The position numbers were made by a program, and so were the translations under genes. From a virus (lineage: Duplodnaviria > Caudoviricetes): a stretch of 64,000 nt of DNA. The stretch lies in the IMG/VR virus record IMGVR_UViG_3300032092_000001; one strand, 5' to 3'. Each line of letters opens with the position of its first letter. The stretch's first letter is position 1. Below the pieces are notes generated by a model. It saw only the letters and a program-made list of their open reading frames with translations, did no database searches and was not told the origin of the DNA. Below, piece after piece: positions 22,361-61,007 of this stretch.

Positions 22361-22426
22361 CTATTCTTTTCATATACCGTTTATTTCTGTTAAAGTATAA
22401 TCCCCATTTGGTTTTCAGTCAAAAAA

Positions 22427-22449
22427 AAATCCGACATCTAGTCGGATTT
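22427..22449. terminator. Intrinsic terminator hairpin
   Basis: aaatccgac-atcta-gtcggattt with A-run on the left (T-run on minus strand). Confidence 0.65.
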
Positions 22450-25197: not shown

Positions 25198-26940
25198 TTA
25201 TAATCCTTTGAATAACCATAAATAGTTTTCATAATCCTTTTTTGTTGGTTGATTTCTATGTTGTTTGTTATCAACACCAACAATTGGATTAAAATATGAT
25301 GTTTGTTGTACGTCATTTGTATTAACAGTCCATGATTCCATCATTACCTTCGCTTGGTTCATATTCTTAGAAAGTTGGGTAAATGAAGACTCCCCAACGT
25401 ATATTGCCATTGCAGTTGACATAATTAAATCATCATGTTGTCCTTTTTGATGGTCCGGTCTCCCATTAATATACACAAAGGTGTGCATTTCGCCAAGTAA
25501 TCGTTTAGACCTAATTATAAAACCATGTCTTAAATATTCCTCATATGTTGCAATAATTTGAACCCTTTTAGCGTTAAAGTTAATTCCCGGAATCTTATCA
25601 TTTATTTTTGGGTCAAACTTCCATTTATTTGACATATCCACACCGTCAACATACATGTTTCTATAACCTAATTCTCTCAATCTTAATGAAGTTGTAACAC
25701 CCATACCACCTGTAATATCAATTACAATAAAGGCATTATACATATTACCCCATTTAAAACACACTTCTGCTAAAGTATCGGGAGGTAATTTACCAATAAA
25801 TTCGGCAACTTGTTCCCTACTATCAAAATCAATTATTTGAAATGTTGAAAAGTCCTCACTATCACCTCTACTCACGTCAACCCCCATAATATATTTTTTA
25901 CCAACTTCAGGTTCTTTCCAAATCCATAAACCTCCACCCATCATTGTAGTTTCAGGGTCTCTTAAATCGTCATTTTTAATCTTTTCAAGTAAATTTGAAT
26001 CAAATACGTTGTCACCAGAACCCAAGAATGCACATTCCAATTCCTGATTAACCTTTCTTTTGTCGTATTTTAACTTTTTAACCATTGACTCATACCAAGA
26101 TGAGGATGGTTTATACCCCTTATTAATTAATTCTCTAATCTCGTCAAATTTCTTTTCTTTCCCATTATAATCAATAATTTCAGTTTCTTGATATTCATGA
26201 CGATTTAAATAATAATGGATAATGTCTTTAACATTAATTAATTGTAAGTCCTTAGCATATCTTGGGTCTTTCCACCAAACCATTTCAGAGATTTTAAACT
26301 CATTCATACCTTTTAAGGCTTGGTCGTAAATTTCATAATAAATTGGGTCAAATCCATTTGGAGTTGATACTACAATTACTTTACCTCCAGTGGATAATGA
26401 CGCCATACAAGCCGCCCAAAAATCTTCATCAGCATCAATATATGCCGCCTCATCAAATATTAATATTGTTGGAGTATAACCACGTAAAGCATCTTTTGAT
26501 GTCGCAACGGCTTTAACCTCACATCCGTTTGTTAATTTGAAGTGTCTTTGTGAATTCTTCTCCACAGAGAAACCAACCCCAACCCAGCTCGGCCATTGGT
26601 CCGTAAACCCTCTAATTTTATTTGCAACTTCAACCGCAGTATCTAATTTATTCGCAATAATTAGAATCTTCTCAGGTTTATTTTTTTTAGCAAAAACTAA
26701 TCTTTTTGAAGACCAAGCAGCAGTAACTGTGGATACACCGGCTTGTCGGTATTTTAAAGCAATGTTTTCATTGTAATTTTCATAGTCCTCAACCAAACTA
26801 ACTTGGTCGGGAAATAGTTCTAATGGGACATATTTTTGTTGTGTATTATCATACGTCTGTAGATAAGTTTTCAAAGCATATGGTGTTGATTTCATACACT
26901 TTGCATATTCCATTAAAACAGCTTCTTTAGTTAAACTCAT
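25198..26940 (-). CDS. gp17: Terminase large subunit, gp17-like
   Basis: LKYRQAGVST, ILIFDEAA Walker B, STPNG, QELEC.F, MGVDVSRG, HDDLIMS; no intein seen. Confidence 0.93.
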   Translation of the reverse strand: MSLTKEAVLMEYAKCMKSTPYALKTYLQTYDNTQQKYVPLELFPDQVSLVEDYENYNENIALKYRQAGVSTVTAAWSSKRLVFAKKNKPEKILIIANKLDTAVEVANKIRGFTDQWPSWVGVGFSVEKNSQRHFKLTNGCEVKAVATSKDALRGYTPTILIFDEAAYIDADEDFWAACMASLSTGGKVIVVSTPNGFDPIYYEIYDQALKGMNEFKISEMVWWKDPRYAKDLQLINVKDIIHYYLNRHEYQETEIIDYNGKEKKFDEIRELINKGYKPSSSWYESMVKKLKYDKRKVNQELECAFLGSGDNVFDSNLLEKIKNDDLRDPETTMMGGGLWIWKEPEVGKKYIMGVDVSRGDSEDFSTFQIIDFDSREQVAEFIGKLPPDTLAEVCFKWGNMYNAFIVIDITGGMGVTTSLRLRELGYRNMYVDGVDMSNKWKFDPKINDKIPGINFNAKRVQIIATYEEYLRHGFIIRSKRLLGEMHTFVYINGRPDHQKGQHDDLIMSTAMAIYVGESSFTQLSKNMNQAKVMMESWTVNTNDVQQTSYFNPIVGVDNKQHRNQPTKKDYENYLWLFKGL

Positions 26941-32213: not shown

Positions 32214-34253
32214 ATGATAGAATCCGCAGACGACAGTGCAAAAAATCCAAAAAAGGTTGAGACTTCATCCAATACTCCAGTTTTAGATAACTTTAGCCGA
32301 GATTTAATAAAATTGGCTGAAGAAGGTAAATTAGACCCAGTTGTTGGTAGGGAGAATGAAATTCTAAGAATCGCTCAAATCCTTTCAAGAAGAAAGAAAA
32401 ATAATCCAATTATTATTGGTGAACCTGGTTGTGGTAAAACCGCAATTGTTGAAGGCTTGGCAATGAAAATCTTTGAGGGTGATTGCCCAAGGAATCTTTT
32501 AGATAAAAGAATTCTTTCATTGGAGATTAATTCAATTGTTGCTGGTACAAAATATCGCGGTCAATTTGAAGAGAGATTAAAGGTTATTTTGGAAGAAATA
32601 CAATCAAACCCAAATGTAATATTATTCATTGATGAGATTCACACTATTGTAGGTGCAGGAAATGCATCAGGTTCATTAGACGCCTCAAATATTTTAAAAC
32701 CAGCGTTATCAAGAGGTGAAATTCAATGTATTGGAGCAACAACTTTAGATGAGTATAAGAAACAAATTGAAAAGGACGGGGCATTAGATAGACGATTCCA
32801 AAAAGTAGTAGTTAGTTCCTCAACCAAAGATGAAACCTTACAGATTTTAAAGAATGTTAAAGACAAATACGAAACTTACCATAGAGTTAGTTATCCTGAT
32901 ACTATTCTTCAAATTTGTGTTGATTTGGCAGAACGTTATATCACCGACAGAGAATTTCCAGATAAAGCTTTTGATATTTTAGATGAAGTCGGAGCAAGAG
33001 CTCAAGTAGATGTTAAAAACCCTGAGATTATTGAGGACTTAAAAAAACAAGCTCAAGATATCCGTAATCAAAAATTACTTGTAGTTAAGAAGCAAAACTA
33101 CGAGGAAGCTGCGAATTTGAGGGATAAGGAAAAAAAGATTATGACTCAACTTGACACTGAGAAAAAGAAGTTTGAGCAAGAATTATTAAATAATAGAAAA
33201 GAAGTAATGGAAGATTTAGTCTATGAGGTAGTATCAACTATGACAAAAATACCTCTAACTAAATTAAGTTTGGATGATAAGAATGTTTTAATAAATCTTG
33301 AGGATGAATTATCTAAATCAGTTATCGGACAAGTAGAAGCGATTCAGAAAATTTCAAAATCAATTAGAAGAAATCGTTTAGGTATTAAAGACCCAAACAA
33401 ACCAATCGGTTCATTTATTTTCTTGGGGTCAACAGGTGTTGGTAAAACATTGTTGGCTAAGGAATTGGCAAAACAAATATTTGGAAGTGAAGATAATTTA
33501 ATCCGTGTTGACATGAGTGAATTCCAAGAGAAACATTCAGTGTCACGACTAATTGGTTCTCCTCCCGGATACGTTGGGTATGATGAGGGGGGTCAATTGA
33601 CCGAACAGGTTAAAACAAAACCATATTCAGTTGTATTATTTGATGAGGTAGAAAAGGCCCACAAAGATATTTTCTCAGCACTTCTTCAACTTTTAGATGA
33701 AGGGTATATGACCGACAGTTTTGGTAGAAAAATTAACTTCAAAAATTGTTTGATTATCATGACATCTAATTTAGGGGTTAAGAAAATGCAAGAATTTGGT
33801 AGTGGTATTGGATTTAGTAAAACTAATAACGTTTACGCAAATGAGGAGTTTAAGAAAAATATGTTAAATAAAGAACTAAAGACCCACTTCGCACCTGAGT
33901 TCATTAACCGATTAGATGAAGTCATCGTATTCAACACACTTCAAAATGAAGATGTTAAAAAAATTGTAGTGGTTGAGATGTCAAAATTAACTAAAAGATT
34001 AAATGATTTAGGTTATAAGATATTGTTTGATGAAAGTGTAATTGAATTTATCACTAAGGTTGGGTTTGATGATGTTTACGGAGCCCGTCCACTAAAGAGA
34101 GCAATTCAAGAAAAACTTGAGGACTTTATATCAGACGAAGTTCTTAGGGGAACTATCACTGAAGATAAAGAGTATCAAATATCAATTAAAGATGAATTAG
34201 TCCTAATTGATGAGATTAAGAAAAAAGTAACAAGAAAGAAAAAGGGAGAATAA
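32214..34253 (+). CDS. clpC: ClpC-type AAA+ ATPase lacking the N-terminal domain
   Basis: GKLDPVVGRE, GEPGCGKT, GTKYRGQFEER, FIDEIH, GSTGVGKT, RLIGSPPGYVG, FDEVEKAH, UVR-like YEEAANLRD, IGF loop (GSGIGFS), GARPLKR. Confidence 0.9.
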   Translation: MIESADDSAKNPKKVETSSNTPVLDNFSRDLIKLAEEGKLDPVVGRENEILRIAQILSRRKKNNPIIIGEPGCGKTAIVEGLAMKIFEGDCPRNLLDKRILSLEINSIVAGTKYRGQFEERLKVILEEIQSNPNVILFIDEIHTIVGAGNASGSLDASNILKPALSRGEIQCIGATTLDEYKKQIEKDGALDRRFQKVVVSSSTKDETLQILKNVKDKYETYHRVSYPDTILQICVDLAERYITDREFPDKAFDILDEVGARAQVDVKNPEIIEDLKKQAQDIRNQKLLVVKKQNYEEAANLRDKEKKIMTQLDTEKKKFEQELLNNRKEVMEDLVYEVVSTMTKIPLTKLSLDDKNVLINLEDELSKSVIGQVEAIQKISKSIRRNRLGIKDPNKPIGSFIFLGSTGVGKTLLAKELAKQIFGSEDNLIRVDMSEFQEKHSVSRLIGSPPGYVGYDEGGQLTEQVKTKPYSVVLFDEVEKAHKDIFSALLQLLDEGYMTDSFGRKINFKNCLIIMTSNLGVKKMQEFGSGIGFSKTNNVYANEEFKKNMLNKELKTHFAPEFINRLDEVIVFNTLQNEDVKKIVVVEMSKLTKRLNDLGYKILFDESVIEFITKVGFDDVYGARPLKRAIQEKLEDFISDEVLRGTITEDKEYQISIKDELVLIDEIKKKVTRKKKGE

Positions 34254-36202: not shown

Positions 36203-36233
36203 TTGTGTATTAGAGAATATATTTATATCTTTG
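36203..36233 (+). promoter_or_regulatory. Bacteroidota-type promoter for tmRNA
   Basis: TTG(36203)-N20-TATCTTTG(36226-36233). Confidence 0.65.
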
Positions 36234-36254: not shown

Positions 36255-36647
36255 GGGGATGTTTTTGGCTTTGACAGGAATGGATTTGTCATAAAACGCA
36301 CGTCGGGGCTAAGCTAACCCTGTAGAACTGGCTTAAATAGTAAACGGCAACGTTATCAACAAACTTTCTTCAATCGGTTTAATCCGTACTGAAGAAGTAT
36401 CTGTAGCTTAATCTAGGATTAACCTACTAGGGGTCGGCAGACATACAACCTTGCAACAGAAGTCGTAGTAGTGGTGTGGTTTCTACCCAAAAAGAAACAA
36501 GTGGAGGATTAGTTCTCAGTAAACCGAACCACTATAAAATAAGGGAATTGTGAAGTTTCGGATTGTTTAGAAAAACAATGACCTAAGCGTGTAGTGTTTT
36601 ATGGTAGACATTTTTGGACCCGGGTTCGACCCCCGGCATCTCCACCA
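36255..36647 (+). ncRNA. ssrA: tmRNA; tag ORF 36346-36411 = (A)GNVINKLSSIGLIRTEEVSVA*
   Basis: 5' GGGGATGTTTTTGGCTTTGAC; 3' GGACCCGGGTTCGACCCCCGGCATCTCCACCA; acceptor GGGGATG/CATCTCC with G3.U; resume context TAAAC-GGC. Confidence 0.92.
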
Positions 36648-38316: not shown

Positions 38317-38393
38317 TGGTACCCCCGACAGGATTCAAACCTGTGACCGCAAAATTAGAAATTTTGTGCTCTGTTCTGCTGAGCTACGGAGGC
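38317..38393 (-). tRNA. tRNA-Arg(UCU) with encoded CCA
   Basis: GCCTCCG acceptor, GCTC/GAGC D stem, CAAAA-TTTCTAA-TTTTG anticodon arm, ACAGG-TTTGAAT-CCTGT T arm, ACCA end; 77 nt. Confidence 0.9.
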
Positions 38394-53414: not shown

Positions 53415-53637
53415 TTAACGAATATTTCTTAATTTTTCTATCAAGATGTTGATTTAATTGGTCTACAAAAAAATTAAATCCGTCTTCATTGACTGAATCA
53501 AAATCATCGGACCAATGTTTGTTCTTATACTGTTTAATTAAATTTTCACAACATTCAATTTGAGTATACGATGTTACAGAGTCAATTATTTTTTTAACCC
53601 ATTCAAAATCTTTTTCCATTGGGCTAATATAAGTCAT
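53401..53637 (-). CDS. Hypothetical protein
   Basis: 78-aa ORF coupled to upstream gene. Confidence 0.6.
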   Translation of the reverse strand: MTYISPMEKDFEWVKKIIDSVTSYTQIECCENLIKQYKNKHWSDDFDSVNEDGFNFFVDQLNQHLDRKIKKYSLINEQ

Positions 53638-54020
53638 TAGTTATATAACAAAGCAACGTACTGAGGATATTTTTTCTCAAATACTCTTGCCATAATTCCG
53701 GCTTCAGTATTTGCATAATCTTCTTGTGATTGAGTATTATACCCTTGTAACTTTATTTTTCTTTGTCTTGCAAATTCATGAGTCCATTCATGAGCAATTG
53801 TTCTAATAATATCAAGTAACATTCTATTATCCGCCAAAACCTTAATTAAACCCGTTATCTCGCTACCGGTTGACATAGCCCCCATTCTCTCACTCATTAA
53901 AATAATCTCAACGTCTCTTTTAAGTGGTGAGTTTTCTTGGGCGAATTTTAAAAAATCTCTAATAACCTGAATCTTATCTTGCCCTAAATCTTTTACTCTA
54001 TTTACAATTTTAACTTTCAT
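53637..54020 (-). CDS. HExxH metallopeptidase-like protein
   Basis: RTIAHEWTH and downstream EDYAN; TATTTAT 4 nt upstream. Confidence 0.6.
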   Translation of the reverse strand: MKVKIVNRVKDLGQDKIQVIRDFLKFAQENSPLKRDVEIILMSERMGAMSTGSEITGLIKVLADNRMLLDIIRTIAHEWTHEFARQRKIKLQGYNTQSQEDYANTEAGIMARVFEKKYPQYVALLYN

Positions 54021-56115: not shown

Positions 56116-57834
56116 TTAACTTATATTATAATTACCATTAAGATACATTTCCGCTTCAGAATTTCTTCTGTTAACTAATCCCTGTAATCCTAATGTTTTA
56201 AAATTTCTAATCTGTTCCGCAGCCCTTTTATGGTCTCCTTTCTTAACTGACTGAATGAAGTCAGATTGTCTAACCCCACCACATCCAGCATTAAACGCTA
56301 ATGACACTAATGCGTCAAATTGACCCTGAGTTATCATATAACTTTTAAGTCCTTTTGATTTCCATTCAGATAAAAAATTCCTAACACAGTCCGCAAACTC
56401 TTTAGCATCATTGTATAGTAATTTTAAAGCCCTTGTTTCATCTATAGTCATTCCCATTCTAACATCATCACCAGTGTGACCCCATCCAATAGTTGCAACA
56501 CCAACGCTGTCTTTATATGCTTGTAATGCCGGCTTGCCCTTTAATTTTGCCAATCCCTCGGCGTACTTAATATGGTCCCAAAAATCCTGACTAACTTTCA
56601 TTTTAGTACCATCTTGTAAATTACTTTCCTCAGGTACGTCTACAGGTTTTACAATTGGTTGTGGTTTATCATACTTTGTCATAGTACTATCCGACGCTGC
56701 GGTAATATCAGGCATTTTTATTTTTTGCTCATTAACTTCAGGTTTCAATACCGTCATGGACTCAGGAAATTCTTTACTTAAAAATTCTCTGTTTTTACCC
56801 TTATATGGAATATTTTGTAAAACGTATCTAATTGCATTTAAACCTGATACTCTCTTATCATTGGCATCCAATATTACCCAAGGGTGATTAACCGTTGAGG
56901 TTTTGTCAAATAATTTTTGTTTAAACTCTGAGAATCGGTCCCACATGTCTTGCATTTTCTCGTCATTAGGGGAGTATTTCCAATACTTTAATGGTGACGC
57001 TTGTCTCATCTGAAATCTAGTTGCCTGAGTCTCCTTATCAATTGAGAACCATAATTTAAACAAATAATCTCCATCTTTAACTAAGTCTTTTTCAAAGTCT
57101 TCAACGTTTTCCATAAAGTCTTCATATTCCTCTGGAGAACCGTATCCCATCACTGGTTCAACAAGTCCTCTATTATACCAACTTCTATCAAAGAAATTAA
57201 TCATTCCTTTTCTAATTTGACTTCTATATCTATCCCACCATGCTTTTCTCTCCTCAGGTGTTGGTATTCCCAATGCAATGATGTTGTAATATCTTGGATT
57301 TAAATTCTCAGTGTACTTTTTAATAGTTGAACCCTTACCCGCAGAATCTCTACCCTCAAAAACAATTATGACAGTTTTACCGGTACTTTTAATCCACTCT
57401 TGCATTTTAAGTAACTCAACTTGTAAATGATATAACTCCTCGTTATAAACTTTCTTTTTAATTAATGAAGGTTCTTGTGGTTCAAATGAAAACTCTTCAA
57501 AATCAGGTTCGTTACTTATGAAATCTTCTTTTTTTCTTTTCTTTAATACCTTTATAATATTTTCAAAATACTTGGTAATGTTTTTTTCTTTATTACCTTT
57601 TTTCATTAAAACATTTCTAACATTTCTCTCAAGTAAGTCAAAATTAATGGTTTGATTAAAACCCATATCCATAATATCATACAATAGAATCTCAAGGTTC
57701 TTTGTGTAGATATTATATTGTTTTAGAATATCCGCAATCTCATTCTCATATTGTTCTGTCGGTTTCTCCTCTTCGTTTAATTGAGTTCCGAGTAATTGTT
57801 TGTATCTGCTGATTTCAGAAATTAATTTTTTCAT
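56116..57834 (-). CDS. ppk2: Polyphosphate kinase 2 fused to GH24 phage lysozyme
   Basis: PPK2: FEGRDSAGKG, FDRSWYNR, KLWFSI, WKYSPND, DANDKR; lysozyme: EG...YKDSVGVATIGWGH, QFDALVSLAFNAG, GLVNRR.E; single continuous frame. Confidence 0.9.
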   Translation of the reverse strand: MKKLISEISRYKQLLGTQLNEEEKPTEQYENEIADILKQYNIYTKNLEILLYDIMDMGFNQTINFDLLERNVRNVLMKKGNKEKNITKYFENIIKVLKKRKKEDFISNEPDFEEFSFEPQEPSLIKKKVYNEELYHLQVELLKMQEWIKSTGKTVIIVFEGRDSAGKGSTIKKYTENLNPRYYNIIALGIPTPEERKAWWDRYRSQIRKGMINFFDRSWYNRGLVEPVMGYGSPEEYEDFMENVEDFEKDLVKDGDYLFKLWFSIDKETQATRFQMRQASPLKYWKYSPNDEKMQDMWDRFSEFKQKLFDKTSTVNHPWVILDANDKRVSGLNAIRYVLQNIPYKGKNREFLSKEFPESMTVLKPEVNEQKIKMPDITAASDSTMTKYDKPQPIVKPVDVPEESNLQDGTKMKVSQDFWDHIKYAEGLAKLKGKPALQAYKDSVGVATIGWGHTGDDVRMGMTIDETRALKLLYNDAKEFADCVRNFLSEWKSKGLKSYMITQGQFDALVSLAFNAGCGGVRQSDFIQSVKKGDHKRAAEQIRNFKTLGLQGLVNRRNSEAEMYLNGNYNIS

Positions 57835-57860: not shown

Positions 57861-57890
57861 TTGATTGTTTTTTAAATTACACTATATTTA
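57861..57890 (+). promoter_or_regulatory. Bacteroidota-type promoter variant upstream of leader peptide
   Basis: TTG-N19-TATATTTA (one mismatch to TAnnTTTG). Confidence 0.5.
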
Positions 57891-57899
57891 ATAAAAAGT

Positions 57900-57967
57900 A
57901 TGAGAAATAAATTGCGAAACATATATAATTTATACAGAATGTCCTGACAATTGTCAGGATTTTTTTT
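57900..57967 (+). promoter_or_regulatory. Attenuator-like leader: 15-aa peptide MRNKLRNIYNLYRMS with overlapping terminator
   Basis: ORF 57900-57947 with three Asn codons; perfect palindrome TCCTGACAATTGTCAGGA (57942-57959) followed by 8 T. Confidence 0.65.
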
Positions 57968-58004
57968 GCCCATACGTTAACAATAAACAAAAAAATAAAA
58001 AAAA

Positions 58005-58832
58005 ATGAAAGACACAAAAACTTATGACGAGTTAGTTCAAAAAATGAGAACATTCTTCCAAGAAAAAGGATTTAAAGAAGTTCCAACACAATCAAGATTG
58101 TCAATTTTGGCAGCATGTGAGAATCCTCACTCAATAACAACATTCAATTATCAAGGAGAAGTTTGGCCGTTACCACAGACAGGTCAAATGTGGTTAGAAT
58201 ACGAACTTCTTAAAAATCCTGAATGGAATGGTGTATATTGTATCTCAACATCATATAGACAAGAGAAGGACCCAATTCCTGGAAGACATGAATTAATTTT
58301 CCCTATGTTTGAATTTGAATCAAAAGGAGGAATGAAAGAAATGATAAAACTTGAATCTGAACTTTTGGATTACTTAGGGTTTGATAAACCAATTGAGGTT
58401 AACTACGATGATGTTTGTGAAGAATATGGTGGAGTCCCAATTTTAGAAAACGAACATGAAACAAGAATGTGGGAAGAGAAAGGTCCTGTTGTTTCTCTTC
58501 AGAATTTCCCATACAGAACCAATCCATTTTGGAATATGCGAGAAAGTGAAAATAGAATATTCAATAAAGTTGATGTGATTCTCTACGGACAAGAAACAAT
58601 TGGTTCGGCAGAAAGAAGTTCTAATGTAGAAGAAATGAGAAATAACTTCTACACTATTGAAAACGGTGGATATTCTGCCAAACTATTTGAACTATTCGGT
58701 AAAGAAAGAGTTGAGAAAGAATTAGAAGAATTCCTATCGTTTGATTTCTTCCCTCGTTTTGGTGGAGGAATCGGAATGACAAGACTCGCAAGAGCTTATC
58801 AGTTAATGATGGAAGAAGTAGAAACTGTATAA
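58005..58832 (+). CDS. Class II aaRS (Asp/Asn/Lys) catalytic-domain-only paralog, probable asparagine synthetase A-like
   Basis: F.EVPT motif 1, QTGQMWLE, SYRQE...GRH..IFPMFEFE motif 2, GGGIGMTRL motif 3; 275 aa, no anticodon-binding domain. Confidence 0.75.
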   Translation: MKDTKTYDELVQKMRTFFQEKGFKEVPTQSRLSILAACENPHSITTFNYQGEVWPLPQTGQMWLEYELLKNPEWNGVYCISTSYRQEKDPIPGRHELIFPMFEFESKGGMKEMIKLESELLDYLGFDKPIEVNYDDVCEEYGGVPILENEHETRMWEEKGPVVSLQNFPYRTNPFWNMRESENRIFNKVDVILYGQETIGSAERSSNVEEMRNNFYTIENGGYSAKLFELFGKERVEKELEEFLSFDFFPRFGGGIGMTRLARAYQLMMEEVETV

Positions 58833-58836
58833 AATG

Positions 58837-58864
58837 AAAATCCCCTCTAATTTGAGGGGATTTT
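58837..58864. terminator. Bidirectional terminator
   Basis: aaaatcccctc-taattt-gaggggatttt. Confidence 0.8.
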
Positions 58865-58865
58865 T

Positions 58866-60575: not shown

Positions 60576-61007
60576 TTGGGTATGAGTACAATTAAAAATG
60601 GAGACCGTGTATCCGTTAACTACACTGGAAAATTAGAAGATGGTTCAATTTTTGATTCTTCATTACAAGAAGGACGAACACCATTAGAGGCGACTTTAGG
60701 TCAAGGTATGTTAATTCCTGGTTTTGAAAATGGATTAATTGGCATGTCTATTGGTGAATCTAAAACTGTTGAGATTGAGCCTGAAAATGCTTACGGTACC
60801 TATAATAATGATATGGTACAGGAAGTTCCATTGTCACAGGTTCCTGAAGGAGTTCAAGTCGGTGACATGTTGACCGGTCAGAGTCAGTATGGGCCAATGC
60901 AAGTAACAGTTAAAGAAGTTAGTTCTGAAACTGTTGTATTGGATATGAACCACCCACTAGCGGGAAAGAAACTAATCTTTGATTTGGAAGTAGTTTCAGT
61001 AAACTAA
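60576..61007 (+). CDS. slyD: FKBP-type peptidyl-prolyl isomerase, SlyD-like without His tail
   Basis: VSVNYTGKLEDGSIFDSS, LIPGFENGL, AYG, DMNHPLAGKKLIFDLEV. Confidence 0.9.
   Translation: MGMSTIKNGDRVSVNYTGKLEDGSIFDSSLQEGRTPLEATLGQGMLIPGFENGLIGMSIGESKTVEIEPENAYGTYNNDMVQEVPLSQVPEGVQVGDMLTGQSQYGPMQVTVKEVSSETVVLDMNHPLAGKKLIFDLEVVSVN

Follow-up and report, generated by a model that had tools for sequence, protein, structure and literature searches.

How does transcription reach an enzyme gene that lies directly behind a strong terminator? The question is raised by a stretch of virus DNA (Duplodnaviria; Caudoviricetes), IMG/VR record IMGVR_UViG_3300032092_000001, which was analysed at its full length of 64,000 nucleotides and is called the window below. 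The phage to which the window belongs is large and has a T4-type major head protein, portal and terminase, and the metagenomes containing the stretch are mostly from lakes and other freshwater. A gene for a protein resembling asparaginyl-tRNA synthetase (AsnRS) is preceded there by a promoter, a short open reading frame (ORF) with Asn codons and an intrinsic terminator. Judging from related sequences, these elements almost certainly form a conserved cis-regulatory leader. The feature is real and conserved, and by its sequence most resembles a coupling-type attenuator with an ORF biased towards Asn and CGA codons, rather than the classical class built on an antiterminator. The locus consists of the following elements.

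57861..57890, plus strand: leader promoter, with TTGATT (57861-57866), a T-rich spacer and a TATATTTA box (57883-57890)
57900..57947, plus strand: leader ORF, with ATG at 57900, 15 sense codons encoding MRNKLRNIYNLYRMS and TGA at 57945-57947
57941..57967, plus strand: intrinsic terminator, with a stem-loop at 57941-57960 and then eight T at 57960-57967
57968..58004, plus strand: spacer, with GCCC straight after the T run and an A-rich tract up to the gene ATG, lacking a promoter box
58005..58832, plus strand: AsnRS-like gene of 275 amino acids, a class IIb catalytic core of the AsnRS or aspartyl-tRNA synthetase (AspRS) type
58836..58865, two-way: terminator hairpin closing the transcription unit, 4 nucleotides past the gene stop codon

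A preliminary description, made from the letters of the window, had noted an ATG soon after the promoter, a 15-codon peptide with Asn at positions 3, 7 and 10, a stop codon inside a perfect 18-bp palindrome, eight T and a gene 37 nucleotides further on. All of this was confirmed. The TGA of the leader ORF sits within the 5' arm of the hairpin. The palindrome (57942-57959) forms a 7-bp stem with a 4-nucleotide loop, or eight pairs if 57941/57960 is counted, with a folding energy of -11.3 kcal/mol, and the gene ATG follows the T run by the distance given. The leader RNA is A-rich and ends in U8. Codon 6 of the ORF is the rare Arg codon CGA, followed by AAC (57915-57920). In a window of 31% G+C, the region from 54 to 64 kb holds 11 terminator-like sites compared with 3.4 +/- 2.0 in shuffled sequences, and the leader hairpin is among them. 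Strong terminators of the window lie nearly all 0-23 nucleotides past the end of a same-strand gene. There are three exceptions, of which the leader hairpin alone is just upstream (about 38 nucleotides) of a gene start. The neighbour upstream is transcribed away from the locus (56116-57834, minus strand) and is a single ORF fusing polyphosphate kinase 2 (PF03976, 6e-71) with a phage lysozyme (PF00959, 5e-30). Because this intergenic region is divergent, the hairpin cannot serve to terminate a long upstream gene.

The leader was compared across 80 viral loci from IMG/VR relatives, whose gene products are 75-98% identical. Among these, 79 loci were usable and yielded 51 distinct leaders after duplicates were collapsed. 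The preliminary description had staked its reading on conservation of the leader, and the layout is kept. A G+C-containing hairpin followed by T7-9 lies within 60 nucleotides upstream of the gene in 72 of the 79 loci. Exactly one ATG-started ORF of 8-26 codons is found in 47 of the 51 leaders, with its ATG 6-10 nucleotides after a TATTTA(T/A) box and its stop between 9 nucleotides before and 15 nucleotides after the start of the 5' arm. The two other frames of these leaders contain no comparable ORF. Across families, leaders are 27-78 nucleotides long and use eleven different stem sequences. Every one of these gives a perfect hairpin (-10 to -15 kcal/mol) with T7-9 behind it. On this comparison, structure rather than sequence is what appears to be selected. 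Automatic alignment with MAFFT misaligned stems of unequal length, so that we relied on the perfect stem of each sequence. A formal covariation count was set aside because the hairpin alignment was too ragged, and compensatory change was judged by inspection. Nearly all leader families carry (G/A)CCC after the T run, a motif that follows no other terminator of the window. The upstream neighbour gene differs among loci, which indicates that the leader module moves with the gene. Two leaders fetched later (L293 and L307) share the same traits, and L307 contains CGA-AAT twice. In one lake sample, contigs (probably DNA) break at the leader, and one broken contig has a different leader hairpin, of the L057 type, ahead of the same downstream sequence. 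Two sequencing runs labelled RNA-Seq are likewise probably DNA. A pattern scan of viral contigs for GGATTTTTTTTGCCC returned mostly unrelated terminators, with the gene carried by only 17 of 119. The more remote phage query P0009 gave no matches, and the P0003 clade has no leader.

The promoter had been labelled a host-type variant. Its sigma-70 match (TTGATT-16-TATATT, 57861-57888) is not above chance, with 50 such sites compared with 57 in shuffled sequences. With a count under the shuffle expectation, the consensus was dropped as promoter evidence and conservation was used instead, scored over 25 distinct leaders of homologues. All 25 keep the box TATTTA(T/A) unchanged, 22-25 have a TTTT block 14 nucleotides upstream of it, and TTG(A) occurs about 19 nucleotides before TAnnTTTA in most. 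This conserved pattern fits the TTG-N19-TAnnTTTG type, which we take to be that of Bacteroidota promoters. The host-type label is hence plausible on the conserved blocks, though not on the sigma-70 match. As the leader ATG in the window comes only 9 nucleotides past the box, the transcript would be near-leaderless, with a start predicted about 3-5 nucleotides before the ATG. Short 5' untranslated regions are rare yet present in Flavobacterium and Bacteroides (PMC9723704, PMC7366714). The spacer between terminator and gene measures 10-43 nucleotides among relatives (some only 10-13) and contains no promoter box, so the gene should depend on read-through. The leader promoter is the only visible route of transcription into it.

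The same box recurs in the window. TATTTA(T/A) lies 0-30 nucleotides upstream of 23 of the 64 start codons, an approximately 11-fold enrichment with a preferred gap of 5-7 nucleotides. Box-preceded genes include those at 25198-26940 (minus strand), 37515, 47997, 53637-54020 (minus strand) and 55069. From these box-to-start gaps, many transcripts of the phage should be leaderless or near-leaderless. A TATATTTA box at 36218-36225 also stands about 30 nucleotides upstream of a gene for transfer-messenger RNA (tmRNA) at 36255-36647 (plus strand), which matches Rfam RF00023 over its full length at 134.7 bits and was not reported by ARAGORN.

The leader ORF is held open far more often than base composition would predict. 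The chance that the frame stays open from the ATG to the hairpin in shuffled sequences is 0.12-0.66 per leader, and the product over 22 leaders, not all independent, is 7.6e-12. At gene identities of 78-92%, the ORF region retains 45-68%, so the peptide itself is not conserved. Related leaders differ in length by whole codons. Such a pattern is typical of regulatory leader ORFs and suggests that the act of translation matters rather than its product. A check proposed in the preliminary description, conservation of the Asn codons, accordingly has a divided outcome: the ATG, the open frame and the Asn bias are kept, and the peptide sequence is hypervariable.

Asn accounts for 76 of 349 leader residues (21.8%), compared with 6.7% in window proteins and 7.1% in the first 15 residues of window genes. 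AAY triplets occur 76 times in frame, compared with 25 and 17 times in the other two frames, and shuffles that preserve an open frame lead to an expectation of 40-44 Asn codons (z 5.5-6). With one representative per hairpin class, Asn still occupies 33 of 162 codons (P=2e-4). Three Asn among 15 residues had been called a modest enrichment, and the window peptide indeed proves nothing alone; it is across leader families that the enrichment is significant. Lys is also frequent in the leaders, but AAA and AAG are equally common out of frame, which marks the Lys bias as compositional. CGA makes up 14 of 29 Arg codons in the leaders versus 19 of 581 in window genes. It is usually followed by AAY, and the CGA-AAY (Arg-Asn) pair recurs in most leader families, where it may be a programmed site of slow decoding or a motif at the nucleotide level (ACGAAA). 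The phage encodes a tRNA-Arg(TCT) at 38317-38393 (minus strand) that reads AGA, which represents 74% of phage Arg codons; the leader ORFs favour the rare CGA instead. Depending on the family, Asn codons lie 3 to about 30 nucleotides upstream of the G+C core of the stem. They abut the stem or form its base in three leader families (L022, L029/L034 and L072).

The frame-specific excess of Asn raises the question of what the downstream gene encodes. The 275-residue product matches PF00152 (class II D/K/N synthetases) at 1e-13 and phrog_29758 at 4e-97. A profile of 48 homologues recovers AsnRS and AspRS among solved structures at 1e-14 to 1e-12, with AsnRS at 1e-14. The best structural matches of the AlphaFold2 model (pLDDT 96.4) are with AsnRS (1x54 and others) and AspRS, in each case with the catalytic domain. 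The sequence carries class II motif 2 (SYRQE...GRHELIFPMFEFE) and motif 3 (GGGIGMTRL). An anticodon-binding domain is lacking, and of the 430 residues of AsnRS the matches span just about 131-409, its catalytic part. By profile and predicted structure, the gene is taken to encode a class IIb catalytic core of the AsnRS type. The model also superposes end to end on the archaeal asparagine synthetase A 3rl6 (TM-score 0.73 by query and 0.71 by target). Like that enzyme (AsnRS2 / AS-AR, 3P8T, 3RL6), the phage protein is a class IIb core of about 280 residues lacking an anticodon-binding domain. The two differ in that identity is about 21% and the phage protein is nearer to true AsnRS/AspRS by sequence. 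No curated NCBIfam cut-off was reached, the asparagine synthetase A model NF005053 scoring 20.2 bits against a cut-off of 322. The earlier label of an Asn-synthetase-like gene is fair in as far as the product resembles AsnRS by profile and structure, and synthesis of asparagine is one of several possible activities suggested by these matches.

In the Prochlorococcus phages P-SSM7 and P-SSM2, a homologue annotated as "tRNA ligase" and 54% identical to the window product is followed within about 10 nucleotides by an unusually long tRNA-Asn(GTT) of 87-88 nucleotides (L081 2290-2376 and L082 2298-2385, respectively). This adjacency provides an independent link between the enzyme family and asparagine. 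Length and sequence suggest that the tRNA-Asn has a long extra arm. Such a tRNA could be the RNA substrate of an enzyme without an anticodon-binding domain.

How the leader might act on the gene can be considered from its anatomy. We see about an even chance that it throttles transcription into the AsnRS-like gene through steric coupling between ribosome and terminator. Judging from the box-to-ATG spacing, the conserved promoter would start a near-leaderless RNA whose first codons are the short ORF, and the strong intrinsic terminator about 70 nucleotides downstream would stop most polymerases. The enzyme would then be made only from read-through, in line with the observed lack of a promoter between terminator and gene. 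Given that no competing RNA structure was found, the first ribosome on the leader ORF would be the sole candidate to modulate the terminator. A ribosome following closely would cover the 5' arm of the hairpin while the U run is made, and termination would fail. A ribosome that starts late or is slowed would allow the hairpin to form, and transcription would end. This last step is modelled on the pyrBI and rph-pyrE attenuators, as well as on measured repression of terminators near stop codons. With the polymerase on the U run, published ribosome-polymerase spacing would put the P site of the closest possible ribosome at about codon 11-12 and its front edge over 57941-57948. A lag of two or three codons would be enough to free the hairpin.

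The surplus of Asn and rare CGA codons would tie the pace of this ribosome to their decoding and make the leader a readout of Asn-tRNA supply. Because the distance between Asn codons and the stem core varies so widely among families, slow decoding should mostly favour termination. A stalled ribosome would mask the stem only in the few families where Asn codons adjoin it. Poor decoding of Asn would hence lower enzyme expression, not raise it. The preliminary description had the enzyme made only on starvation; this is not what the anatomy predicts, and the simplest physical reading has the opposite polarity.

Coupling of this type has precedents in E. coli, where termination at an intrinsic terminator drops from about 90% to less than 10% if a stop codon precedes it by a few bp. 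The drop depends on translation and fades by about 30 bp (PMC4824070). Leader stop positions fall inside this range of about 30 bp. In pyrBI and rph-pyrE, a reading frame likewise reaches or enters an intrinsic terminator upstream of the regulated gene, and no antiterminator hairpin is needed because a close ribosome blocks the terminator hairpin. The likeness extends to the distance from stop to hairpin, which lies within the repressed range (PMC4824070); in all small-ORF families but one, the stop keeps to the interval from 9 nucleotides before to 15 nucleotides after the 5' arm start. The difference lies in the signal: there it is UTP-dependent pausing of the polymerase, whereas the only visible bias of the phage leader is its Asn and CGA codons. 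The phage leader is also far shorter, near-leaderless and phage-borne.

Several observations weigh against ribosome-terminator coupling. The same E. coli study reports that terminators less than 100 bp into a coding region work well, since the ribosome has not yet caught up (PMC4824070). Modulation by leader translation may therefore be small. Should the enzyme make asparagine, a polarity that gives less enzyme when Asn-tRNA is short would be odd. Ordinary genes of the phage usually also have their stop codon within or beside a terminator hairpin, and stop geometry alone is thus no proof of design. The leader families are partly related by descent, so that the statistics overstate their independence. 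In the L037-L040 family, the ORF runs through the terminator, ends just before the gene and is not Asn-rich. At three further loci (L032, L035 and L042), an ordinary upstream gene ending 12-15 nucleotides before the hairpin takes the place of the small ORF.

The replacement of the small ORF by a normal gene at these three loci would fit a constitutive leaky terminator, which would fix a low enzyme dose and sense nothing, the ORF being an ordinary micro-gene or filler. The succession of promoter, ORF and terminator resembles any compact gene of the phage, and a terminator at about 22421-22449 (minus strand) also lies between same-strand genes with no TATATTTA box in 61 nucleotides. A leaky terminator would leave unexplained why the ATG, the open frame, the Asn bias and CGA are kept while the peptide sequence is not. 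In L072, the small ORF overlaps the upstream gene's stop codon and has no promoter box. It is still Asn-rich, with five consecutive Asn, though the upstream gene on the same strand could supply transcription. The GCCC block, conserved at the leader terminator and at no other, likewise argues for more than a generic leaky site. We regard a purely constitutive device as unlikely.

The classical amino-acid attenuator proposed initially, in which stalling at Asn codons under limitation prevents the terminator and induces the enzyme only in starvation, appears distinctly unlikely. It has in its favour that the Asn enrichment is frame-specific and matches the AsnRS-like product, and that stalling at Asn would place the ribosome over the 5' arm in L022, L029/L034 and L072. 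There is also a report inferring leader-peptide attenuation in Flavobacterium, which is related to the probable host (PMC9723704). Among known operon leaders, those of trp, his, pheA and pheST share with the phage leader a short ORF rich in codons for the cognate amino acid, followed by a terminator. The pheST operon is a precedent for a synthetase gene under leader-peptide control. Their alternative antiterminator and pause hairpins are absent from the phage leader, however, so the expected polarity is not the classical one. No clear antiterminator had been identified by eye, and folding bears this out. Folding of leaders truncated ahead of the 3' arm, with shuffled sequences as the reference, revealed no antiterminator in any family. 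For most families, the energies of the truncated leaders come to about 0 to -3 kcal/mol and do not surpass those of shuffles; nothing pairs with the 5' arm. A conserved outer helix between the leader 5' end and the GCCC region was looked for and none was found. A 5-bp GUAUG/CAUAC pair in the window was considered as such a helix and rejected, as it is not conserved among relatives. Rfam models matched the leader at chance level only (E 0.14 or worse, far under gathering scores), including Phe_leader at 15.6 bits against a threshold of 55, and none matched the loci of 20 cellular homologues. With no alternative structure, a trp-type mechanism fails a defining test. The nearest Asn codon is moreover mostly 12-30 nucleotides from the G+C core of the stem, too far for masking, and the leader is too short for four pairing segments.

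A factor of phage or host origin might instead set timing by making the polymerase resistant to the terminator or by binding the A-rich leader RNA; a protein could bind at the conserved TTTT and GCCC blocks. Phage lambda uses a comparable layout at pR'-6S-tR', where a promoter is followed by a short terminated RNA and then by a gene, and Q confers antitermination. The window shares with lambda the promoter-proximal terminator that yields a short RNA and leaves the downstream gene in need of read-through. In the window, the short RNA is a conserved ORF and the device serves one gene; no antiterminator gene and no Q-like factor or site turned up, although no systematic search for one was made. 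Factor-dependent control gives no reason for keeping an ATG and an open Asn-rich frame. It is also not a general device of the phage, as this is the sole strong terminator of the 64-kb window that lies directly before a gene without a long same-strand gene ending at most 25 nucleotides upstream. We consider such control highly improbable. That the enzyme has the small peptide as its partner or substrate, as in units of a precursor-peptide gene, a leaky terminator and a modifying enzyme, is hardly credible: ORF and enzyme gene are tightly linked across many phages and partial terminators behind precursor genes are known to set stoichiometry, but the peptides are 8-26 residues of low complexity with no common motif, and some relatives have no small ORF at all.

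An attenuator-like leader does not accompany the enzyme everywhere. No leader precedes the cyanophage homologues or the one at the viral locus L290; each has a plain T4-type late promoter (TATAAATA) instead. In another phage clade (L202 at about 560-600; L048, L056, L299, L302 and L306), a G+C hairpin and A10 stand just before the ATG, with T8 before the hairpin in L202. This element is no terminator on either strand and could sequester an A-rich translation start. A protein identical to the window product is also encoded on contigs of up to 285 kb. Other genes of the window encode an ATP-dependent protease (32214-34253, plus strand; phrog_4871, 4e-235) and an FKBP-type prolyl isomerase (60576-61007, plus strand; PF00254, 1e-21).

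Homologues of 56-64% identity occur in metagenome-assembled genomes (MAGs) assigned to Saccharibacteria and other members of the candidate phyla radiation (CPR), DPANN archaea, Dependentiae, Chlamydiota and Bacteroidota. Among the cellular homologue loci, 38 of 79 have a hairpin and T run within 70 nucleotides upstream of the start. Most of these hairpins are 50-450 nucleotides from the nearest upstream ORF, which is divergent in 13. Eight MAG loci (L218, L240, L250, L259, L262, L263, L266 and L267), mostly assigned to Saccharibacteria or other Patescibacteria, share a structured leader about 110 nucleotides upstream of the homologue. Within an outer helix AUGCAUAA/UUAUGCAU, whose second strand comes just past the U run, lie a covarying hairpin and the terminator hairpin; a conserved ORF of 9-10 codons (MH...) starts in the outer helix. 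With no Rfam match, this leader is a candidate new cis-regulatory RNA. Leaders of the attenuation type thus seem to be recurrent in the enzyme family, in different forms. A broader proposal would be a family of near-leaderless, antiterminator-free attenuators that report Asn-tRNA decoding through Asn codons and CGA-AAY and control an AsnRS-derived enzyme, widespread in freshwater T4-like jumbo phages and with different leaders before the same gene in CPR bacteria. We put this forward tentatively, and hold it possible rather than probable.

Phages are known to carry riboswitches and protein-dependent antiterminators. A search of the open literature found no phage leader-peptide attenuator. If the broader proposal holds, no ribosome-mediated attenuator responsive to an amino acid would have been described in a phage before. 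If translation of the 15-codon frame tunes the AsnRS-derived enzyme, the virus would read the translation state of its host directly, by means of the first ribosome on the RNA, and such sensing would need just about 70 nucleotides and no alternative RNA fold. The device would evolve fast, and only its "grammar" would persist: a start, a frame that stays open and carries Asn and CGA codons, and a stop placed at the hairpin. The enzyme family comprises at least 8000 sequence clusters without a named function, in phages and in MAGs of CPR, DPANN and Bacteroidota, and the leader offers a handle on this very abundant family.

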